63,156 nt of DNA, filler included, from 6 parts of 6 records of this genome joined end to end with filler, not necessarily neighbours in it, one strand, 5' to 3'. Shown: positions 9,263 through 55,754, counted from the first letter of the whole stretch. Numbers and translations: made by a program. The notes: generated by a model from the letters alone, not told the origin.

Positions 9263-10503
9263 AAAAATATTTATTAGTATTAACACTGATCACAACCACT
9301 GTGTTTTTGGCAAGTTGTCAAAGTGGACCTACCCTAAATTTATATAATTGGGGTGAGTATATAGATGATGCTTTAGTTGAAGCATTTGAAGAAGAGTCAG
9401 GTATTAAAGTAAAACAAATTGCATTTGATTCAAATGAAGTTGCAATCACACAAATTAAAGCTGGTAATGATTATGATTTAGTCATTCCTAGTGATTATGC
9501 AATTGAACAATTAGCAGCTGAAGATTTAATTGATCCAATTGATTGGGAAAGAGTGACAACTTTTGATAAAGAAACTGATATAGCAACTGGTCTTGATAGT
9601 GTATTAACAACGCTTGATAATCAGGGAGAAGGTTTTGATCTCTTAGAATATGCAGTACCTTATTTTTGGGGCAATGTAGGTATTTTATATGATACAACAG
9701 TTGTTGATGAAGCAGATTTAACTGGATGGGATGTACTTAATATGTCAGATACATATGAAATTGCATTTTACAATAGTTCTCGAGATGCATACATGAGTGC
9801 AATGTTTGCAACAAATACAGCGGATATTAACAATCCAACTGATCAAGAATTATCAGATGCTACCGATTGGCTAAATCATGCATTAACTTCAGATACTTAT
9901 GTGATTACAGATGACATATTTGAAGCCATGTTAGCACCTGCTACATATAACTTAGCAGTAAGTTATTCAGGTGATGCAAATTACTTAATGATGGAAAATG
10001 AAGACTTAAGTTTCTTTGTTCCTGATGAAGGGACAAATGTATGGGTTGATGGATTTGTTTTACCAAAAGGTTCAAATCAAGATTATGCTTATGATTTCAT
10101 TAATTTTATGTTAAGTTATGAATCAGCATTACAAAATACAGATTGGGTAGCATATACATCACCTCGACAAGATGTCATTGATGCATTACTTTTAGATGGT
10201 TATGATGCATATGAATCATCATTTGATGTGAGAATTAACGCAAATGATCAAGTGTATCGCTATAATAATACATTAAAAACTGAGATTGATAATTCTTGGC
10301 AAGAAATACTTGCGAATAAAGGATTTGATGAAGAAGGTATTGGAACAACGACAATTATCGCAATTGTTGTCGTTGCAGCAATTGTTATTGGTACTTCAGT
10401 AACTGCAATAATTAAAAAAGAAAGACAATTTAAGCGAAAAAAACTCCTAGAAAATTCTAGGAGTTTTTTTTACCATAATATATTTTTTTATCTTTGTACA
10501 TGA
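9259..10503 (+). CDS. potD: Polyamine-binding lipoprotein; true stop probably TAA at 10431-10433 (one A missing in the run at 10414-10419)
   Basis: LASC lipobox, NWGEYID, PSDY, PYFWG, YSGDA, GTNVWVD; as given, the ORF runs through a terminator into the convergent gene. Confidence 0.9.
   Translation: MKKYLLVLTLITTTVFLASCQSGPTLNLYNWGEYIDDALVEAFEEESGIKVKQIAFDSNEVAITQIKAGNDYDLVIPSDYAIEQLAAEDLIDPIDWERVTTFDKETDIATGLDSVLTTLDNQGEGFDLLEYAVPYFWGNVGILYDTTVVDEADLTGWDVLNMSDTYEIAFYNSSRDAYMSAMFATNTADINNPTDQELSDATDWLNHALTSDTYVITDDIFEAMLAPATYNLAVSYSGDANYLMMENEDLSFFVPDEGTNVWVDGFVLPKGSNQDYAYDFINFMLSYESALQNTDWVAYTSPRQDVIDALLLDGYDAYESSFDVRINANDQVYRYNNTLKTEIDNSWQEILANKGFDEEGIGTTTIIAIVVVAAIVIGTSVTAIIKKERQFKRKKLLENSRSFFYHNIFFYLCT
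10437..10471. terminator. Bidirectional terminator between potD and the GGDEF gene
   Basis: AAAAAAACTCCTAGAA-AA-TTCTAGGAGTTTTTTT. Confidence 0.8.
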
Positions 10504-28948: not shown

Positions 28949-29048
28949 NNNNNNNNNNNNNNNNNNNNNNNNNNNNNNNNNNNNNNNNNNNNTTAATTAA
29001 TTAANNNNNNNNNNNNNNNNNNNNNNNNNNNNNNNNNNNNNNNNNNNN
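28949..29048. other. Artificial contig spacer
   Basis: N44-TTAATTAATTAA-N44. Confidence 0.99.
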
Positions 29049-29098
29049 CGTCGTAAGAACAACAAAAGGTGGGGGTGACATCCCAGGCTTTTGAAATT

Positions 29099-29168
29099 GT
29101 CATCCTGGACGACAAAAACGTCATTCCGGACGACAAAAATGTCATCCCGGACGTGATCCGGGATCCAG
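29099..29168 (+). repeat. Three tandem REP-like units with a 21-nt period; the last is a complete hairpin
   Basis: GTCATCCTGGACGACAAAAAC / GTCATTCCGGACGACAAAAAT / GTCATCCCGGACGTGATCCGGGATCCAG. Confidence 0.8.
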
Positions 29169-29244
29169 CAGTTATAAATAATGTTCTTAAAACGCATGCA
29201 CTGTTATAAAAAGGACGCTAGAAAAAATAAAAGAGGAAAGCAAG

Positions 29245-31308
29245 ATGACTGAAAAAGTCGATTCTTACGAAAAAGTTCCTATCAACCCAAGCGATGTTTG
29301 CTACCGAGCATTTGAATTGATGCAGGCAAAGCAGCTAGACGAGGCAGAGAAGCTCTTGAATAACAATCTTGTCAAAGTTGATGATCCTGTCGCTGTTGGC
29401 CTCTTTCATTCTTCCCTTGGTATACTCTTTAAATTAAAAGGTGAGATGAAGACAGCTTGGAAGCACTACCAAAGGGCTGAAAAACTTATCCCAGAAGATC
29501 CCGCTCTCAAAATAATTATAGCAAGATTGCTTCTGGAACAATTTGCAGAGTACGATTCAGCAATAAAGAAGGCAAAGAAGGTCTTGAAAGTCATTCCAGA
29601 TAATCCCGTCTTTGCTCATCAAGCCTACGTAACAATGGGGCTTGCTTATATTGGAAAAATTCAAAAACAGCGTGCAATACAGATGCTAAAATCTTCAATG
29701 ATTGAAGATTTCGCTGGCTTTGTTACAGCAAGAAATATAGATTTTAATTTGGTTGAAATGCTGCTTAGGAAAGGTTGGGGAGTTGATAAATGCAAACTCT
29801 TTCTCGAAAAGGCTCGTGATTTTGCAAAAATACAAAACGAGGCAGATTGGGTTGAACTAGTCGACAGAATGCTTGCGGCTTTTCCAGAGGAGAAGATACA
29901 AAATGAAGAAGAATCAGGAAAACTTCCGCTAATTGATACACACGCTCACTTAACGTGGCCGGACTATAAAGAAGACATCGACGATGTTTTGAAGAGGTCT
30001 TGGAGTTCAGGCCTGGAGGCTATTGTTGCAATAGGTTCCGGAGACGGTCTCGAAGGCAATAAGCGCGTTGTTGATTTTGCAAACAAACATAAAAACGTCT
30101 ACGCAGCAATCGGAATACATCCCCATGATGCCGAGAAGGTTTCGATAGAAGACGCACTTGCCACATTAAAAGGCTTGGCTGATAATGAGAAGGTCGTTGC
30201 AATTGGAGAAATTGGCCTCGACTATCACTACGATTTTGCAACACCAAAAGCGCAGATGAAGATGTTTTCGACTTTGCTAGATTTGAGTTCAGAATTGAAG
30301 TTGCCGATTTCCATTCACGACCGTGAAGCTCACAAAGATGTTCTTAATATGGTGAGAGAAAAAAAATATGAACACTTGGGTGGAATCTTTCACTGCTTTA
30401 GTGGTGATGTAAAGATGGCTCACGAAGTTGTTGATCTCGGTTTCTATATCTCAATTCCCGGAATAGTAACTTTCAAAAAAGCAAAAGAGTTAAGAAAAGT
30501 TGTAGAAGAAATACCAGTTGAAAGATTAGTGATTGAAACTGATGCTCCTTACCTTGCTCCAGAACCTTTCCGAGGAAAGCGCAATGAACCTTCATACACA
30601 ACCTTTATCGCCGAAGAGATTTCGAAGATAAAAAGCTTGTCGGTTAGCGATGTTGCTCGCATTACAACAATCAACGCACGTCGCGCATACAATCTTCCAG
30701 GGATGATTCCGGTTGGAAAGTTGGCTTATCCAATTCGTAATTCACTATATATCAATTTGACAAATCAATGTACGCTAACTTGTGTCTTTTGCCCGAAACG
30801 ACACGGAAGATATGAAGTCAAAGGACACAATCTTAAACTCAAGCAGGATCCAAATGTCGAAGATATCCTAAGAGCAATTGATGAATTCAATAATTATGAC
30901 GAAGTTGTTTTCTGTGGATTTGGCGAGCCAACCTTGAGACTCGAACAGATGAAGGTTATTGCAAAACATATGAAAGAAAAGGAAGTTCGCATCAGGTTGA
31001 ATACGGATGGCCTAGTAAACTTAGTCAGCCAAAGAGACGTCTTGCCAGAACTTGCCGGTTTGATTGATGCTGTAAGTGTAAGCATGAACGCCCCAGACCC
31101 AAGAACATACGCAAAACTCTGTCCTTCCGACTACGGAGAAAAAGCCTTCTACGCAATGCTTTCATTCCTAGGAAAAGCAAAAGAGTTCATTCCAGAAGTA
31201 ACAGCAAGCGTAGTCTCCGCACCAGGAGTAGACGTAGACGCCTGCAAAAAACTAGCAAAAGAACTAGGCGTCCAACTAAGAGTAAGAAAATACCAAGAAC
31301 TAGGATAG
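29245..31308 (+). CDS. TPR region + TatD nuclease + TatD-linked radical SAM domain; the TPR part may be a separate gene
   Basis: TPR-like helices in aa 1-215; TatD motifs DTHAH, GIHPH, IGEIGLDY, HDRE, HCF, ETDAPY; CTLTCVFC (CxxxCxxC) and FCGFGEP. Confidence 0.88.
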   Translation: MTEKVDSYEKVPINPSDVCYRAFELMQAKQLDEAEKLLNNNLVKVDDPVAVGLFHSSLGILFKLKGEMKTAWKHYQRAEKLIPEDPALKIIIARLLLEQFAEYDSAIKKAKKVLKVIPDNPVFAHQAYVTMGLAYIGKIQKQRAIQMLKSSMIEDFAGFVTARNIDFNLVEMLLRKGWGVDKCKLFLEKARDFAKIQNEADWVELVDRMLAAFPEEKIQNEEESGKLPLIDTHAHLTWPDYKEDIDDVLKRSWSSGLEAIVAIGSGDGLEGNKRVVDFANKHKNVYAAIGIHPHDAEKVSIEDALATLKGLADNEKVVAIGEIGLDYHYDFATPKAQMKMFSTLLDLSSELKLPISIHDREAHKDVLNMVREKKYEHLGGIFHCFSGDVKMAHEVVDLGFYISIPGIVTFKKAKELRKVVEEIPVERLVIETDAPYLAPEPFRGKRNEPSYTTFIAEEISKIKSLSVSDVARITTINARRAYNLPGMIPVGKLAYPIRNSLYINLTNQCTLTCVFCPKRHGRYEVKGHNLKLKQDPNVEDILRAIDEFNNYDEVVFCGFGEPTLRLEQMKVIAKHMKEKEVRIRLNTDGLVNLVSQRDVLPELAGLIDAVSVSMNAPDPRTYAKLCPSDYGEKAFYAMLSFLGKAKEFIPEVTASVVSAPGVDVDACKKLAKELGVQLRVRKYQELG

Positions 31309-31330
31309 ATCATCTAAATAGTCTTCATAG

Positions 31331-31568
31331 TCTTCGAGAGAGCGAAGCGAGTCGAGAAGAAAAAACTTCTGAAAAATATTATTAAAGGGGTTGCAAAAAA
31401 AGCAACCCCTTTTCAATTACAATTGCGAGGAGCCTGAAAGGCGACAATGCAATCAAAACAATTATAGTTGCAAGGAGCAAAGCGACAAAGCAACAAGTAC
31501 TATTCCCTCCCCCGCTGAACGGGGGAGGGCTAGGGTGGGGGATAGATAAGATGTTCGCAATGCGAACA
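31331..31568 (+). repeat. Cluster A of short palindromic REP-like elements
   Basis: Units at 31331-31360, 31384-31413, 31422-31454, 31467-31494, 31502-31541 and 31552-31568; four of the types recur at 35102-35343. Confidence 0.85.
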
Positions 31569-31653
31569 ACAAAACCCGTTCTCTTTAGGTACGTTATTCA
31601 GAATTTATTATTTTATATTTATCGTAAAGGGTTTAAATGCACATATAAGAGAT

Positions 31654-31737
31654 CTTAAAAATTTGTTATAGATATTTCCCGTACAGCGCCTTGTTAATTC
31701 GAAGCTGGTAGGGACATATCTATAACAAATTTTTAAG
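31654..31737. repeat. 27-bp inverted repeat (26/27 match) with a 30-nt spacer
   Basis: CTTAAAAATTTGTTATAGATATTTCCC at 31654-31680 versus GGGACATATCTATAACAAATTTTTAAG at 31711-31737. Confidence 0.9.
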
Positions 31738-32120
31738 TAAGTATTATATGCAAGCTGAGAAATTGAAGTCTGTAGATGAATATAAAAATAAGAAATTTTC
31801 AATTACCCTAAACCTCCACTTTAACTAATTTCCATACCAAAACCCCCAAAAACCTAAAAATCCCAATTTCTCCACAAAAATAATTTTATACGAATCCACG
31901 TTTTTCTAATAATTATAAGACCTTAAATCCTTATTGAGAACGATCCCAAAAGGTCATTTTTTTAGCAACAAAATTGCTCTAAGTGTCGAATAATATTAGT
32001 AAAGGGAATTACTTGACAGGGCAATTTTTCCTTGTCACAGCGCGTTAAAAGAGCTAAAGTTCGCGTGTCCAGTGGATATGGCGGAATGTCTCTGGGCGCC
32101 CCAAAAGTAGGGGGTGGGTT

Positions 32121-35084
32121 ATGGGCAGGATGAAAATCCTTTCGGTGGTACTGGCGGTCATGGTGACTGTCACAATTTTTGGTTGCGGTGGGTCATCGTC
32201 TTCAAAAGATTCATCGCCAAATTTTAATGCCTCTCCAGATAATTACACTTCAAAGTATTCAACTACCTGGAAAAAATTTCTCAACTCGAATCACTACAGT
32301 GGCTACCTCGCTTTAAAATTCAAAACAGAAACCGAAATGCGTCTCCGCAATGACGTCATGTATAGTAGTTCTAATCCCGCACTAGCTGAAACCGTTAACG
32401 AACTTCTCTTAGCCCATGGAGCAGTTGTTGAACGTTCATTCAAAGTTGAAGAAGAAGTAATTACTCGCGCACTATCGAGAGCAAAGCGCGAAGGAAAGAA
32501 ACTCAACGATTGGAATCTCTTCTACAATATCAAAGTAAAAAGTCCAGGACATGCAGAAGATCTCTATCGTGAGATTGGTTCTCTCGAAGGGATCGAATGG
32601 ATTCACCCTATTCCAAAACCAGTTATTTCAAATGTTGGTGGCGTTTCGGATCTAGTTGCGGAACAAACCTACATTGAACCTCACGATCCATTGACGGGGG
32701 GAGGTTTGAATATTCAGGCTGCCTGGGATGTTGGTATTACGGGTCAGGGAGTTAAAATAGTTGATGAAGAAATGAATTGGGATTTCGATCACTTTGATCT
32801 TCCTATAGATGAGAGCGATGTAGATTCTTCCCCATATTTTGAATTTACAGAAGAGTACAATACAGATGAGTTTATAAATCATGGAACAGCAGTTGTAGGT
32901 CTTCTTGCAGCATTAGATAATGGTGAAGGTATTACAGGTATTGCTCACTCAAGTGAAATTAAACTCTGGAGAACCGATTCAGTTGTTTGGGAGTTAGCTG
33001 ATGAGGTTGCTGATTTGTTAATCGACTATGCAGAAGGTCAAGATGTTGATCCTTGGTTAAGACCTGGAGATATTATTTTGATGGAAGTAGCTGCTCCAGG
33101 GCCTAGTACTCCAGCTGCAACAGGTTGTAACATTAACGAAGTTGGCGATGAACCAACGTATTGTATTCCAGTTGAAGCTTATCCTCAAACCTTCATGATG
33201 TTAGAAGATGTAACTGAACTAGGAGTTATTGTTGTTCAAGGTGCTGCAAATGGTGGAATAGATTTAGCTAATCCAGCTGCTCAGATATCAAACTGTGGTG
33301 GTGAAGGCGGAAGTCTTCCATTTGACTGTGTTGATTTAGCCACTGATCATTCTGGAGCGATAATGGTTGCTGCTTCAAATGGTCAGGCCAACGATTTTAA
33401 ACCTTGGTGGAGTAATTGGGGTAACCGCATTGATGCTTATGCTTGGGGCTTAGGTGTTGCAACGACAGGCTATGGTGACCATCCAGATTCAAATGGTGAA
33501 AATGCAGAATACACCTCAAACTTTAATGGAACTTCTTCAGCAGCAGCACTTGTTGCAGGATCGCTTGCTTTAGTTCAAAGTTACACAAAAGATCATTACA
33601 AAAATATAGTTCCTCACAAGGAAGTCTATCTTGATGCTCCGCAAATGAGAGAGTTGATTGAGTTGACTGGTCATGCTTCTTCAAGCTCCGATCATATTGG
33701 TAAAAAGCCAGATGTTGGTGCGATGATGGAGGCTATTGATAACTTCGAGGTTATTCCACATATAGCACCTGCAACAGAGACTTTGCTAAGAGATCAGAGA
33801 CCAATTAACAGAATTATGTATGATCTCGATAAGGATTCCAGAGCCGATCTAATTACATGGAGTGGTGGCACATGGAAAATCGATCTTTCAACTATTGCAC
33901 CAGATATCGATAATCCAAATCCAGATAACTATGGATCATGGGATAGAGAGATATATTTTGAAGGTTGTCCTACAGGTGATTGCATAATCTATCCAGTTGT
34001 TCATGATTATGACACAGACGGTGACGCAGATCTTGCCCTCTACGATTCAAAGAATGGAATTTGGTATATCAAGTTCACAACAGATGAAGTTTTAAACGCT
34101 GGTATCGGTGAAACATTAACATGGGATCTTGAGATCGACTACAGTTTAAGTCCAGAGTGGGAACCATACTCAAGACCAGCTCCTGGAGATTATAATAACG
34201 ACAACAATCTTGATATTGGAATTGTTACACCAAATGGACATTGGTTGATGGATTTTGGTGGAATCGGTTCCTTTGAACTAGTCGGTGGTAATATGCACTG
34301 GGTCTCTGAGTTTGGAACAATCGAAAAAGATGTCAAGTTCCTAACAGATGCTCAACTAGCAGCAGCGCCAGGCTGGGCCTATATGCCGATATCTGTCAAG
34401 TTTAGTAATCATTCTCTTGATCTGGTCTATAAAGTGCCTGATGGTTTAGAAGGTGAAAATATTATTAAGCTTATTAAGTGGGCTCATTATTCTGAAGATG
34501 TTGAATATACAGATTTATGGATTGAAGAGCATACCCTCGTACGAGATATGCATAACTATGGATCAAACGAGAATATATTTGTTGGTTCATCAATTGACTA
34601 TAATGATTTGAATCTTAAGGATATCGCAGTTTATCAGAATCAAAATGATGTTCAGGTAATAGATGGTGCTTCAATGTACTATTATTATGGAGATGTTTCA
34701 CAACCTTCGTGGTCGTACCAAGATCCTTGTAAACCAATAGTTTCTGATTTTGATGGTGATAAGAAAGATGATTTTGCAATGATGTGTCCTGATGGCTGGC
34801 ATATAACTTATCATGATGTTGAGCTAGGTTATCCTTCAGTCTATACAGTCTCATCGGAAAGAACAGTTGATTTAGATGTTGGATCAATGTCTCTACCTCC
34901 AATGATATACCCAGGAGGAATCAGTTATCAAGAAATACAAAACATCTTAGAAGGCTACGACCTGGTAGAAGAATACCAAGACAAAGACCCATTCACACCA
35001 CTAACAGTAGACTGCATAAAACACTGGGCCCCACCAGCCCCATACTGCCTATCAAACTACGAAGGCCCAGAATACAATAATTAA
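32121..35084 (+). CDS. S8 (subtilisin-like) serine protease lipoprotein with C-terminal FG-GAP/VCBS-like repeats
   Basis: IFGC lipobox; triad motifs KIVDEE, NHGTAV, GTSSAAA; DLDKDSRADL, DYDTDGDADL, DYNNDNNLDI, DFDGDKKDDF repeats. Confidence 0.9.
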   Translation: MGRMKILSVVLAVMVTVTIFGCGGSSSSKDSSPNFNASPDNYTSKYSTTWKKFLNSNHYSGYLALKFKTETEMRLRNDVMYSSSNPALAETVNELLLAHGAVVERSFKVEEEVITRALSRAKREGKKLNDWNLFYNIKVKSPGHAEDLYREIGSLEGIEWIHPIPKPVISNVGGVSDLVAEQTYIEPHDPLTGGGLNIQAAWDVGITGQGVKIVDEEMNWDFDHFDLPIDESDVDSSPYFEFTEEYNTDEFINHGTAVVGLLAALDNGEGITGIAHSSEIKLWRTDSVVWELADEVADLLIDYAEGQDVDPWLRPGDIILMEVAAPGPSTPAATGCNINEVGDEPTYCIPVEAYPQTFMMLEDVTELGVIVVQGAANGGIDLANPAAQISNCGGEGGSLPFDCVDLATDHSGAIMVAASNGQANDFKPWWSNWGNRIDAYAWGLGVATTGYGDHPDSNGENAEYTSNFNGTSSAAALVAGSLALVQSYTKDHYKNIVPHKEVYLDAPQMRELIELTGHASSSSDHIGKKPDVGAMMEAIDNFEVIPHIAPATETLLRDQRPINRIMYDLDKDSRADLITWSGGTWKIDLSTIAPDIDNPNPDNYGSWDREIYFEGCPTGDCIIYPVVHDYDTDGDADLALYDSKNGIWYIKFTTDEVLNAGIGETLTWDLEIDYSLSPEWEPYSRPAPGDYNNDNNLDIGIVTPNGHWLMDFGGIGSFELVGGNMHWVSEFGTIEKDVKFLTDAQLAAAPGWAYMPISVKFSNHSLDLVYKVPDGLEGENIIKLIKWAHYSEDVEYTDLWIEEHTLVRDMHNYGSNENIFVGSSIDYNDLNLKDIAVYQNQNDVQVIDGASMYYYYGDVSQPSWSYQDPCKPIVSDFDGDKKDDFAMMCPDGWHITYHDVELGYPSVYTVSSERTVDLDVGSMSLPPMIYPGGISYQEIQNILEGYDLVEEYQDKDPFTPLTVDCIKHWAPPAPYCLSNYEGPEYNN

Positions 35085-35101
35085 TTATACCCCTCCATAT
35101 C

Positions 35102-35343
35102 ATTCCCTCCCCCTCGAGGGGGAGGGTAAGGGTGGGGGTGAAAATATAATTTCAAAAACAAAAGGGGTTGCTCAAAAGCAACCCCTTTTCTATTTATTCC
35201 CCTTAGAAAAAGAGGGGCTAGGGGAGATTTTATAATAAAACCCTCCGCCACATTTTTTTGTTTTGTCATTGCGAGGATCCTGTAAAGGCGACGCGGCAAT
35301 CCAGGTAATAATACTCTTCGAGTGAGCAGCGCGAGTCGAGAAG
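35102..35343 (+). repeat. Cluster B of short palindromic REP-like elements
   Basis: Units at 35102-35140, 35160-35189, 35199-35230, 35265-35304 and 35315-35343. Confidence 0.85.
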
Positions 35344-35351
35344 CATACATA

Positions 35352-35994
35352 TTATTTCTTCTTATTCAAAAGTTTTTTATCTTCAGGTTCGCTAAGATAG
35401 TTTTTGCTTGAAATTACAGGACGTTTAATTTCTTTCTCCAGATTCTTACGTGCATTGCCTGCTATAGTTCCGCCTCTTTTTGCATCGGATTTCAATTTAT
35501 GCTTACCTCTAGAATCTTCAACTTGAGTAATCTCCGTTGTTGCTCGTTCACCAAGCATTGAAAAGATAAGTTCAAGATCGTTCATATGGTCTCTAAGATT
35601 TTCTTTGTTGATATTTTAAAAATCTTTGTATTCTGATGGAGTCATTCCAAAAGTTGCTTTTGAAATTTCTGCTGTCAGGATTGCATAATCTCGTTCATTG
35701 TTAGAGCCTCTTTTCGACCATTCATCTGTCAGCTCTTCACGAATTGCAATTCCTCGCATTCGCTTCTCAATCCAGTTGTCTGAATACCCCTTTGCTTTAT
35801 ATAGAGCTCTTGTTCTTTTAGTGGCAAGCTCTGGATCTTCAATTTCCTTGACTCGTTCATAGCCAACACTTGCAAGCCACCTCTTAAAAGGTTCAGCCTT
35901 TGGAGAAGGGATTGATTGGATTATTCGGAAAATACCCTCAGTATTGGCACAGTTTATTTTTTGTTTTCCTCCTGATGTAGCTATTGAAAGGGGG
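35352..35994 (-). CDS. Bro-N domain (phage antirepressor-like) protein, 5' truncated, apparent frameshift near 35614-35617
   Basis: Manual translation gives FRIIQSIPSPKAEPFKRWLA.VGYERV.EIEDPEL and ELTDEW; one added base joins it to NLRDHMNDLELIFSMLGE. Confidence 0.85.
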
Positions 35995-36094
35995 NNNNNN
36001 NNNNNNNNNNNNNNNNNNNNNNNNNNNNNNNNNNNNNNTTAATTAATTAANNNNNNNNNNNNNNNNNNNNNNNNNNNNNNNNNNNNNNNNNNNN
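35995..36094. other. Artificial contig spacer
   Basis: N44-TTAATTAATTAA-N44. Confidence 0.99.
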
Positions 36095-42018: not shown

Positions 42019-42118
42019 NNNNNNNNNNNNNNNNNNNNNNNNNNNNNNNNNNNNNNNNNNNNTTAATTAATTAANNNNNNNNNNNNNNNNNNNNNNNNNN
42101 NNNNNNNNNNNNNNNNNN
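42019..42118. other. Artificial contig spacer
   Basis: N44-TTAATTAATTAA-N44. Confidence 0.99.
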
Positions 42119-47346: not shown

Positions 47347-47446
47347 NNNNNNNNNNNNNNNNNNNNNNNNNNNNNNNNNNNNNNNNNNNNTTAATTAATT
47401 AANNNNNNNNNNNNNNNNNNNNNNNNNNNNNNNNNNNNNNNNNNNN
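47347..47446. other. Artificial contig spacer
   Basis: N44-TTAATTAATTAA-N44. Confidence 0.99.
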
Positions 47447-55654: not shown

Positions 55655-55754
55655 NNNNNNNNNNNNNNNNNNNNNNNNNNNNNNNNNNNNNNNNNNNNTT
55701 AATTAATTAANNNNNNNNNNNNNNNNNNNNNNNNNNNNNNNNNNNNNNNNNNNN
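55655..55754. other. Artificial contig spacer
   Basis: N44-TTAATTAATTAA-N44. Confidence 0.99.

Follow-up and report, generated by a model that had tools for sequence, protein, structure and literature searches.

Ssn proteins have been described as tiny GIY-YIG single-strand DNA nucleases whose targets are the NTS/SRM repeats (Chenal et al., 2025, Nat Commun 16:2388; PMC11893778); Ssn proper corresponds to CDD family cd10448. According to the same source, they bind such a hairpin as single-stranded DNA only, and on one strand only, and cut a few bases 5' of it; SsnA is reported there not to bind RNA. In Neisseria, their action restricts recombination of incoming DNA carrying the repeats (PMC11893778). 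NIME arrays, made of dRS3 plus RS elements and, according to the paper describing them, not seen outside Neisseria, flank surface-protein genes that diverge more than average, and a role in directing recombination with incoming DNA has been proposed for them (Bentley et al., 2007; PMC1797815). A further group of palindromic repeats is REP/BIME/REPIN with the associated RAYT proteins (PMC2817692, PMC3116915, PMC3733652).

The repeats studied here lie in a window of 63,156 nt (the whole stretch of DNA analysed), which consists of six contigs joined by N44-TTAATTAATTAA-N44 linkers. The array-bearing contig occupies positions 29049-35994 (6946 bp) and starts directly after an N linker. Since the window is six joined contigs, the original prediction that no nuclease lies on the contig covers these 6946 bp only. 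Perfect hairpins occur at about 2.6 per kb in this contig and at 0-1.3 per kb in the other five. Besides the two arrays named originally, a third cluster of units was found at the left end of the contig (29066-29168). The genes and units are as follows.

29066..29098, + strand: left-end cluster, part 1: a lone G-rich arm AAAGGTGGGGGTGA like the unit 4 tail, then a degenerate half copy GACATCCCAGGC... of the unit 6 5' end (read)
29099..29140, + strand: two truncated copies of the 5' part (tag and left half-stem, GTCATYCYGGACGACAAAAA), repeated in tandem with the complete unit 6 hairpin, period 21 nt
29140..29168, + strand: unit 6, TGTCATCCCGGACGTGATCCGGGATCCAG, an 8-bp perfect hairpin with GTCAT tag and ATCCAG tail (RNA fold -13.8 kcal/mol)
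29245..31308, + strand: gene for a TPR + TatD + radical-SAM fusion protein, 687 aa (Pfam TatD_DNase 2e-82; Radical_SAM 1.4e-15, residues 503-665)
31318..31335, + strand: 9-bp duplication, ATAGTCTTC twice (period 9, 2.0 copies, 100% matches)
31329..31359, + strand: unit 1, left copy, AGTCTTCGAGAGAGCGAAGCGAGTCGAGAAG, a weak hairpin (pattern search, folding)
31384..31413, no strand assigned: unit 2, left copy, 11-bp stem between an A tract and a T tract (terminator scan; -17.9 kcal/mol)
31422..31454, + strand: unit 3, left copy, solo left-arm type, tag decayed to ACA and tail to ATCAAA (pattern and covariance model)
31466..31494, + strand: unit 3, degenerate copy (covariance-model match 31468-31493)
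31502..31541, + strand: unit 4, left copy, three arms, ATTCCCTCCCCC-loop-GGGGGAGGG-CTA-GGGTGGGGG (read, folding)
32121..35084, + strand: S8 subtilase gene, 987 aa (Pfam Peptidase_S8 4.8e-11)
35102..35138, + strand: unit 4, right copy (pattern search, folding)
35160..35189, no strand assigned: unit 2, right copy, 13-bp stem between the convergent protease and Bro-N genes (terminator scan; -20.1 kcal/mol)
35196..35228, + strand: unit 5, ATTCCCCT-loop-AGGGG-CTA-GGGGAG, a unit 4 variant (read, folding)
35265..35303, + strand: unit 3, right copy, solo arm with GTC tag and ATCCAG tail intact (pattern and covariance model)
35315..35343, + strand: unit 1, right copy, CTC at the tag position (pattern search, folding)
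35352..35993, - strand: Bro-N/DinD-like gene, cut by the contig end, one in-frame TAA near 35613-35615 (translation; Pfam Bro-N 3.3e-08)

Pattern search and direct reading confirmed that four motifs are common to the two intergenic regions around the protease gene and that all of them are on the + strand, in the shuffled order 1-2-3-3'-4 on the left and 4-2-5-3-1 on the right. The sequence beside the units, read by eye, differs between the clusters; this favours modular units over a segmental duplication, as had been proposed. Motif 1 has exact matches at 31331-31359 and 35315-35343, with 0 matches in 100 shuffles. The two motif 2 loops differ in length by one base, so that a fixed-length pattern matched the right copy only. 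Similarly, the gapped motif 4 pattern caught only the right copy because the loops are 7 nt (left) and 4 nt (right); the left copy was read directly. Motif 3 lies at 31422-31454 and 35268-35301, and its degenerate copy was recovered by a covariance model not trained on that copy (16.1 bits, E 0.039). The predicted fifth type is present but is not a separate type: its C-arm, loop, G-arm, CTA and second G-arm make it a variant of motif 4. Tandem Repeats Finder returned the 9-bp duplication, which spans the unit 1 tag (AGTC) and the first stem bases, and also a tandem array at 29099-29153 (period 21, 2.6 copies, 88% matches).

In other genomes, both termini of gene-less inverted doublets, and likewise of GIY-YIG-bearing elements, consist of unit 3. 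One genome scan gave at least 123 loci, around which 1.03 Mb of DNA was fetched. These loci carry some 18 phylum-level labels, i.e., the unit is pan-bacterial; the record titles name Chloroflexota, Alpha-, Beta-, Gamma- and Deltaproteobacteria, Omnitrophota, Patescibacteria, Nitrospirae, Planctomycetia, Verrucomicrobia, Bacteroidota, Spirochaetes and others. GTC, which was absent from the search pattern, precedes the unit in 128 of 132 copies. An inverted partner CTCGCAATGAC lies within 200 nt downstream in 105/127 copies, versus 15/127 upstream, and the tagged copies with their partners thus make gene-less doublets of about 89 bp (median 89 bp, n = 95). A direct repeat of at least 3 nt at both ends was found in 0/95 doublets, i.e., they are without target duplication. 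Where the inner stem is extended, the changes are compensatory, full pairing being seen in 6/8, 7/7, 5/10 and 2/2 distinct sequences versus shuffled means of 1.5, 1.5, 0.5 and 0.2. The unit 3 copies of the window are solo arms in one orientation, unlike these doublets, and the left copy has no inverted partner anywhere in the window.

The original idea that type 3 palindromes surround small GIY-YIG genes is borne out in these other genomes for three of the 132 copies (L042, L055 and L017), where the arms enclose a gene for a protein of 95-96 aa within an element of about 0.4 kb. L042 and L055 are built as left arm, 6-17 nt, GIY-YIG reading frame, 0-6 nt and right arm; in L017 the reading frame between the arms is reversed and broken. 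The L042 and L055 proteins score 1e-16 and 5e-18 with Pfam GIY-YIG, the solved structure closest to them is that of the UPF0213 protein 1zg2, which has a single domain (E 3e-5), and an NCBIfam search returned no family above cut-off. Around a fourth GIY-YIG gene (L009), the flanking hairpins are of another kind, a pair tagged GTC...GAC. Only five GIY-YIG genes are present in the 1.03 Mb, and in the fetched loci unit 3 has no other recurrent neighbouring gene family.

Judging by sequence, units 3 and 6 are Ssn-related motifs, each with a (Y)GTCAT tag 5' and an ATCYRG tail 3' of a hairpin. The SRM string HGTCWYN(0-2)YYVSBRHN(0-5)WNVSBRGN(0-2)RNCYNB (taken from PMC11893778) has its exact and only match in the window at 29140-29168, which is unit 6, while shuffles of the contig average 0.01 matches. 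Units 1-5 have no match to the strict string, so 1 of about 10 window units carries it. The right copy of unit 3 has the SRM tag and tail, but its body is longer, with a nested, co-varying inner hairpin, and lies outside the published string. Both the units and the SRM are oriented, intergenic hairpins clustered around genes. The IS-like repeat-gene-repeat arrangement around a single-domain GIY-YIG protein of about 94 aa has its parallel in the unit 3 arms of L042, L055 and L017, unlike the window copies. In the window, SRM-type units are mixed with other families, all in one orientation, and no ssn-like gene was found (best E 0.013). Gene-less doublets of about 89 bp have no mention in PMC11893778, where the words 'REPIN' and 'MITE' each occur 0 times. 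Overall, the trans-acting small nuclease of the original prediction is a good reading for type 3, and unit 6 fits the Ssn motif.

Unit 1 was assigned to none of the families, but has the GTC tag and a GAGCGAAGCGAG core in common with the unit 3 arms; its left copy is not recognised by the unit 3 covariance model. The 1.03 Mb retrieved around unit 3 loci contained 0 matches to units 1, 2 and 6. Unit 2 is a bidirectional intrinsic terminator, its left copy serving the TatD-radical-SAM gene: a terminator scan called both copies on both strands as a GC-rich stem-loop with a T run 3' of a gene. It resembles intrinsic (Rho-independent) terminators in the GC-rich stem, the A tract before it, the T tract after it and the position just past a stop codon, but differs from them in that one 11-bp stem sequence is present twice within 4 kb, and for this reason unit 2 is itself a member of a repeat family. 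Units 4 and 5 belong to a second widespread family, consisting of a C-arm, a G-arm and a second G-arm. Unit 4 was found at 331 positions in 49 plasmid/chromid records, of which 42 are from Azospirillum, its three-arm layout is near-identical in Azospirillum replicons, and in Pannonibacter clusters of unit-4-type units fill an intergenic region. The regions fetched around unit 4 copies contain ordinary genes or no annotation. A resemblance of type 4 palindromes to those around DUF559/Vsr-like nuclease genes had been suggested originally; a motif search in all frames of 123 unit 3 loci (1.03 Mb) found no DUF559-like frame against which adjacency could be judged.

REP/BIME/REPIN repeats resemble the units in being tagged palindromes in mosaic intergenic clusters, in forming inverted doublets without target duplication (as unit 3 does elsewhere) and in having a single-strand-specific protein encoded between two repeats. 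However, according to the texts cited above, their tag is GTAG or CGTC rather than GTCAT, the associated protein is HUH/Y1 rather than GIY-YIG, BIMEs alternate in orientation, which the window arrays do not, and REPs are as a rule restricted to one lineage, whereas unit 3 shows near-identity across phyla. We rejected REP/BIME with RAYT on the tag, on the lack of a Y1_Tnp domain in the 61 ORFs scanned and on the uniform + orientation. Neisseria NIME arrays are likewise intergenic arrays of small palindromic repeats, variable in order and number (PMC1797815), but the organism here is not Neisseria, and this candidate was rejected since dRS3 (ATTCCC-N8-GGGAAT) has 0 matches on either strand of the window. 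Integron attC cassettes were rejected on the lack of GTTRRRY in the three clusters and of an integrase, and a MITE of a DDE transposon on the lack of target duplication, inverted ends being present.

We consider it probable that the three clusters are arrays of short, oriented, hairpin-forming, non-autonomous repeats, whose decayed solo arms accreted at gene 3' ends and are served by a nuclease in trans. The window copies would be such decayed arms, with the nuclease encoded elsewhere in the genome, and the units would accrete one by one, so that a mosaic resembling the NIME arrays of Neisseria or the BIME arrays of E. coli results. In addition to ending transcription, the arrays may make the protease gene that they flank a strand-specifically nickable, recombination-modulated locus. 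The N-terminus of this protease (…TIFGCGG) reads like a lipoprotein signal.

A mutational footprint in the neighbouring genes had also been predicted, and it is present as a run of A- or C-ending codons in both genes that end 5' of an array, covering their last 59-76 codons almost entirely.

31078..31305, + strand: A/C-wobble tail of the TatD-radical-SAM gene, 69/76 sense codons A- or C-ending, the last 25 all so
34905..35081, + strand: A/C-wobble tail of the protease gene, 53/59 sense codons A- or C-ending

The lowest G3+T3 fraction over 40 codons is 0.02 in the first tail and 0.05 in the second, and such usage over 40 codons is absent from all 1411 control frames taken from other bacteria. 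The Bro-N gene has no A/C tail and is absent from the 12 lowest minimum-window values listed, the others there being at least 0.25. The switch is confined to synonymous sites and is graded and patchy, with no single break. The Radical_SAM match runs on into the first tail, and the protease C-terminus encoded by the second is conserved in four homologues. In NIME-flanked genes, by comparison, the reported footprint is amino-acid divergence (PMC1797815).

The original prediction read the arrays as cassette-insertion hotspots, i.e., recombination sites where the protease and Bro-N genes enter and leave. This idea is not new, having in essence been put forward for NIME arrays by Bentley et al. (2007; PMC1797815), who proposed that they promote the exchange of genes next to them; of 19 tbpB replacement fragments, 13 terminate within or close to such arrays, according to that paper. 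The arrays do bracket the protease gene, a phage-type Bro-N gene abuts the right one, and the protease lacks a close relative: among 5.8 billion proteins it has 16 homologues, the best with 47% identity over 99% of the query and all of them singletons. We nevertheless regard hotspots as unlikely here. No integrase or recombinase is encoded in the array contig or among the 56 ORFs of the other contigs, and attC cores and dRS3 are lacking, as described above. All units share one orientation, leaving no inverted borders, and the protease does not stand out in GC content (0.33-0.45 across the contig in 300-nt windows). In the published experiment the effect was the opposite, repeats flanking a gene lowering its replacement by transformation (PMC11893778).

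It is still less likely that the arrays act at the RNA level only, as a terminator plus REP-like hairpins stabilising the 3'-UTR, with no nuclease at the DNA level. The arrays begin 10-20 nt past the stop codon in the direction of transcription, unit 2 has the form of a canonical terminator, single-strand folding is strong (z -6.9 left and -4.9 right, 0/200 shuffles as good), and REPs have been discussed as 3'-UTR regulators in the literature. Such a role is at odds with the conservation across phyla of the 24-nt core and the unpaired tag bases of unit 3, with the physical enclosure of GIY-YIG genes by its arms and with the reported failure of SsnA to bind RNA (PMC11893778). Rfam gave no match above the gathering score, the sole match being RsaE at 27.1 bits versus a cut-off of 79.

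Finally, an assembly or binning artefact, in which a chimeric contig joined at repeats combines arrays and recoded tails from different organisms, might be suspected from the mixed bin (contig GC 0.31 to 0.54), the start of the contig inside a repeat cluster and the sharp change of codon usage within two genes, but is highly improbable, as reading frames and conserved protein sequence continue straight across both switch points, the change is synonymous, graded and patchy, and the control frames hold no such usage.

Returning to the arrays as hairpin repeats served in trans, we speculate, with considerable doubt, that arrays and recoded tails could be two halves of one process, a strand-specific event that starts 5' of the repeats and drives synonymous sites to A or C. 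It would begin on the side where Ssn-type nucleases cut single-stranded DNA and run about 180-230 nt back into the upstream gene, and with one strand repeatedly exposed or resynthesised, all synonymous sites on the repeat-bearing strand would come to be A or C. A similar pattern marks the strand that stays single-stranded while vertebrate mitochondrial DNA replicates. On this reading, these cuts would also have left the tandem 5' half-copies at 29099-29140 and 31318-31335 as scars. If this is true, genes beside such arrays would bear the imprint of a local, directional mutational field.

The window is composed of six contigs separated by N44-TTAATTAATTAA-N44 linkers (28949-29048, 35995-36094, 42019-42118, 47347-47446 and 55655-55754), so it does not represent one molecule; the order of the contigs across the linkers carries no meaning. 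GC content of the contigs is, in order, 0.31, 0.40, 0.32, 0.48, 0.54 and 0.42, and such a spread (0.31-0.54) means that the window is probably a mixed bin. All three repeat clusters are located within one 6946-bp contig (29049-35994, GC 0.40), which carries the following genes:

29245-31308, + strand: TPR-TatD-radical-SAM (TatD-rSAM) fusion gene
32121-35084, + strand: S8 subtilase gene (the protease), 987 aa
35993-35352, - strand: Bro-N/DinD-like gene, incomplete at the contig end, with one in-frame TAA (35613-35615)

The Bro-N/DinD-like gene is the sole phage-like gene of this contig; it could be a pseudogene or contain a sequencing error. The best ESM Atlas scores for the TatD-rSAM protein were 0.76 and gave leads only (Omnitrophota, Thermodesulfobacteriota, Ignavibacteriota). 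Ordinary housekeeping functions account for the 56 larger ORFs of the other five contigs, and no GIY-YIG, Y1-transposase or integrase gene is among them at E 1e-5 or better. The stretch from the left array to the protease gene contains an AT-rich inverted repeat (31654-31737; 34-nt arms, 88% complementary, 16-nt spacer), which folds at -39 kcal/mol as RNA and might be an operator or a small element of some other kind.

The left array occupies the spacer 3' of the TatD-rSAM gene, the right one lies between the protease and Bro-N genes. The original prediction described four motifs (units 1-4) shared by both spacers; this observation is confirmed, while the interpretation attached to it is partly supported. 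Pattern search located motif 1 at 31331 and 35315 and motif 3 at 31422 and 35268. For motifs 2 and 4, fixed or gapped patterns found the right copies but missed the left ones because loop lengths differ; the left copies are visible in the sequence and in hairpin and terminator scans. A degenerate copy of motif 3 was also claimed, and the unit-3 covariance model, from whose training set this copy was absent, matches it at 31468-31493 (16.1 bits, E 0.039). The 9-bp duplication reported next to unit 1 is present at 31318-31335. The proposed fifth type (unit 5, 35196-35228) exists, but it shares the architecture of motif 4 and is a variant of it. The reading of the clusters as modules holds as well: no sequence is common to them between or beside the units. 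Segmental duplication was rejected on these differences in inter-unit and flanking sequence, and modular units are therefore the right description.

Single-strand folding of the spacers departs from that of shuffles with z of -6.9 (left) and -4.9 (right). Perfect GC-containing hairpins occur at about 2.6 per kb on this contig versus 0 to 1.3 on the others. The third cluster, located at the left end of the contig, includes a solitary G-arm resembling the end of unit 4, as well as:

29099-29153: two or three truncated 5' half-copies, repeating every 21 nt
29140-29168: perfect hairpin (unit 6)

A permissive Rfam search of the contig gave one chance match, RsaE, whose 27.1 bits fall far short of the gathering score of 79. 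A protein search for further mosaics, using a spurious ORF of 89 aa that lies across the right array, gave no match, and the unit motif strings retrieved only chance primer matches from the literature.

Ssn nucleases are small GIY-YIG proteins with a single domain and a length of about 94 aa (Chenal et al., 2025, PMC11893778). They bind their hairpin repeat as single-stranded DNA only, on one strand only, and cut a few bases upstream of it; cutting needs the bases just 5' of the palindrome, and binding needs a C just after it. The repeat is known as NTS in Neisseria (CGTCATTCCCGCGMAVGCGGGAATCYRG) and as SRM ("Ssn-related motif") in its generalised form. Ssn homologues have the motif nearby in 71% of cases and on both sides in 42%, the repeats are clustered around genes, and DNA carrying the repeats transforms N. 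meningitidis less efficiently owing to the nuclease (PMC11893778).

The published degenerate SRM string has a single match in the window (29140-29168) and none in the other contigs; contig shuffles give 0.01 matches on average. Unit 3 has the tag and tail of SRM, but its body is longer, so the SRM string misses it. The words REPIN and MITE are absent from the paper (PMC11893778). Unit-3 strings are absent from all 12 supplementary files searched, out of 14; as these list genomes instead of sequences, this absence says little. The window hairpins fall among the repeats that Ssn GIY-YIG single-strand nucleases recognise, and hence are not a new system.

A genome scan using a pattern with 24 specified bases matched unit 3 in at least 123 stretches. 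Record titles of the matches listed cover about 18 phylum-level groups, Alphaproteobacteria being the most frequent. GTC, which is not part of the search pattern, directly precedes 128 of the 132 non-duplicate copies among the matches listed, and is followed there by C (73), T (58) or G (1). The inner stem grows by compensatory pairs: distinct sequences are fully paired in 6/8, 7/7, 5/10 and 2/2 cases, with shuffled means of 1.5, 1.5, 0.5 and 0.2, respectively. Column-wise covariation on the unit-3 alignment A1 was uninformative, because the search pattern fixed most columns and short loops misalign, and was replaced by gap-length analysis.

Most unit-3 copies are paired. Among the matches listed with enough flank, 105 out of 127 copies have an inverted partner, ending CTCGCAATGAC, within 200 nt downstream, compared to 15 out of 127 in the upstream control. 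The doublets listed have a median length of 89 bp (n=95), and in none of these 95 do both ends carry a direct repeat of at least 3 nt. ORF clustering revealed no recurrent neighbour family within 2 kb of the 132 copies; the largest cluster spans seven copies and overlaps the hairpin itself. Partial 5' copies were found upstream of unit 3 in 7/131 cases versus 2/131 in the control window, a weak excess that is suggestive.

In a Dehalococcoidia MAG (locus L045, ~9900-10040) three tandem partial unit-3 copies with a 42-nt period lie in a coding region that, read by eye, appears to encode an aminotransferase. Such a period would preserve the reading frame. A Chloroflexia chromosome (loci L026, 10001-10414, and L058) has a four-copy unit-3 array with spacings of 141, 141 and 101 nt. 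This array lies at the centre of a large inverted duplication, with the same ORFs of ~350 aa and 99 aa mirrored on both sides.

Of the 22 listed unit-3 copies that lack a near partner, three have arms that enclose a gene:

L042 and L055 (Omnitrophota): left arm, 6-17 nt, ORF of 95-96 aa, 0-6 nt, right arm
L017 (Sphingopyxis): ORF between unit-3 arms, reversed and broken

ORFs between unit-3 arms are GIY-YIG domains (Pfam E 1e-16 and 5e-18), and their closest solved structure is the single-domain UPF0213 protein 1zg2. A profile search over all 10,287 frames of the fetched loci found only five GIY-YIG genes. The fourth is flanked by a different hairpin pair, which starts with GTC and ends with GAC:

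L009, 19100-19530: left GTC-GCCCCGTG-loop-CACGGGGC; right GCCCCGTG-loop-CACGGGGC-GAC; GIY-YIG gene between them

Since this pair has another palindrome but the same ends, the GTC...GAC ends outlast changes of palindrome. The fifth gene is truncated and followed by ATGAC remnants. DUF559-like frames, which the original prediction associated with hairpins like unit 4, were not found in the fetched loci. Literature searches found no work linking GIY-YIG with prokaryotic palindromic MITEs and nothing relevant on GIY-YIG COG2827/UPF0213/YhbQ. An older survey treats prokaryotic stand-alone GIY-YIG proteins as repair enzymes, with no mention of repeats in its relevant passages (PMC1564403).

Unit 2 is a bidirectional intrinsic terminator according to the terminator scan. 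Unit 4 was found in 331 places, mostly unannotated spacers, in 49 plasmid/chromid records, 42 of them from Azospirillum. An Azospirillum copy located directly after a stop codon has the arrangement seen in the window: C-arm, G-arm, CTA, second G-arm. A 730-bp spacer of a Pannonibacter replicon (plasmid) is packed with unit-4-type units, and a hairpin with a second G-rich arm is recurrent in many fetched loci. Three-arm hairpins of this type are multi-copy in Azospirillum, with up to 32 places per record. Unit-4-type hairpins of Azospirillum and Pannonibacter are located as follows:

fetched locus L122: 4001-4046
fetched locus L123: 3840-4570
plasmid matches: H28-H57

Units 1, 2 and 6 have no match in 1.03 Mb of fetched loci. 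Unit 1 has the GTC tag (left copy) and the GAGCGAAGCGAG core in common with unit-3 arms, and receives no score from the unit-3 covariance model.

The closest analogues of the mosaic are Neisseria NIME arrays and, judging by abstracts, E. coli BIMEs. NIME arrays vary in the number and order of repeats, the genes beside them diverge more than average, and a role in directing the exchange of neighbouring genes was proposed for the arrays (PMC1797815). No dRS3 pattern or REP tags were found by pattern search of the window, and no RAYT gene by ORF search; the likeness is a resemblance in working, not membership. Overall, the window hairpins can be considered members, partly new variants, of Ssn-related and REP-like repeats in NIME/BIME-like arrays.

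The original prediction saw in the arrays a candidate cassette hotspot, at which gene content would vary among relatives. A protease that lacks a close relative (16 homologues were found, the best 47% identical) and an adjoining phage-type gene fit this weakly. However, there is no recombinase on the contig or among the 56 larger ORFs of the others, there are no cassette core sites and no GC contrast, and all units have a single orientation, so we do not favour a hotspot. Observed are the repeat families, their orientation and structure, the terminator and, elsewhere, GIY-YIG genes enclosed by unit-3 arms. Most likely, the window copies are decayed solo arms on which a nuclease gene product from elsewhere than the 6.9-kb contig would act in trans. 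Recognition would take place on single-stranded DNA of one strand, with a cut 5' of the hairpin, as described for Ssn (PMC11893778). Repeat units were probably added one at a time at the 3' ends of genes. In addition to terminating transcription, the arrays would make the bracketed lipoprotein-like protease gene a recombination-modulated locus.

Both + strand genes ending just 5' of an array change their codon usage near their ends:

31078-31305, + strand: TatD-rSAM tail; A or C is the third base in 69 of the last 76 sense codons, including all of the last 25
34905-35081, + strand: protease tail; A or C is the third base in 53 of the last 59 sense codons, with ATG and TGG among the exceptions

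The share of codons ending in G or T (G3+T3) is 0.43 in the TatD-rSAM gene body and 0.62 in that of the protease, while the lowest 40-codon values are 0.02 and 0.05, respectively. The other window ORFs tested go down to 0.25 and no lower; the minimum for 1411 control open frames of at least 200 codons from the fetched loci is 0.125, with none at or below 0.10. The change is graded and patchy towards the array. The Radical_SAM match reaches residue 665 of 687, inside the TatD-rSAM tail. Four homologues can be aligned to the C-terminus of the protease, where invariant residues extend from L925 to C976. Since the tails encode conserved protein, the codon switch in both is, judging by these alignments, synonymous.

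In the tails, the apparent rule is A wherever the choice is fourfold or between purines, and C where it is between two pyrimidines; leucine is CTA. Proline is encoded by CCA and never by CCC, though the gene body uses CCT, which makes simple G-to-A and T-to-C transitions a poor fit. Nor is the A/C tail a general companion of unit 3: none was found in 41 genes ending within 200 nt upstream of unit 3 elsewhere (mean G3+T3 is 0.498 for bodies and 0.510 for tails, and the drop never exceeds 0.20). The Bro-N gene, which reaches the right array from the other side, has no such tail. A role as a Rho-loading (rut) site was rejected, C exceeding G in the protease tail only. An antisense ORF (31149-31313) was judged a by-product, because antisense codons ending in T or G rarely make stops. 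At the left edge of the contig, the first six codons of one frame (29050-29067, GTC GTA AGA ACA ACA AAA) end in A or C. Located just before the third cluster, this very short stretch could conceivably belong to the end of a third recoded tail.

Candidate causes of the tails are repeated exposure or resynthesis of one strand from the cut side of the nuclease, selection for an A/C-rich single strand that stays unpaired in front of the hairpins, and import of gene ends. The tandem 5' half-copies at 29099-29140 and 31318-31335 may be related scars, as may the partial 5' copies upstream of unit 3 in other genomes, for which the statistic is weak.

We did not find in print a long-bodied class of nested-hairpin repeats nearly identical across ~18 phylum-level labels, or the occurrence of unit 3 mostly as gene-less ~89-bp inverted doublets without target duplication, which we regard as REPIN-like partners of the GIY-YIG gene. 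The same applies to two genes running into the arrays whose last 59-76 codons end almost only in A or C while the encoded protein is conserved. These recoded tails, observed on a single short contig of a mixed bin, are the one really strange feature. The effect of such arrays on DNA is a decades-old question for REP, BIME and NIME elements. If the arrays cause the codon switch, it would be a readable in-genome trace of that effect.
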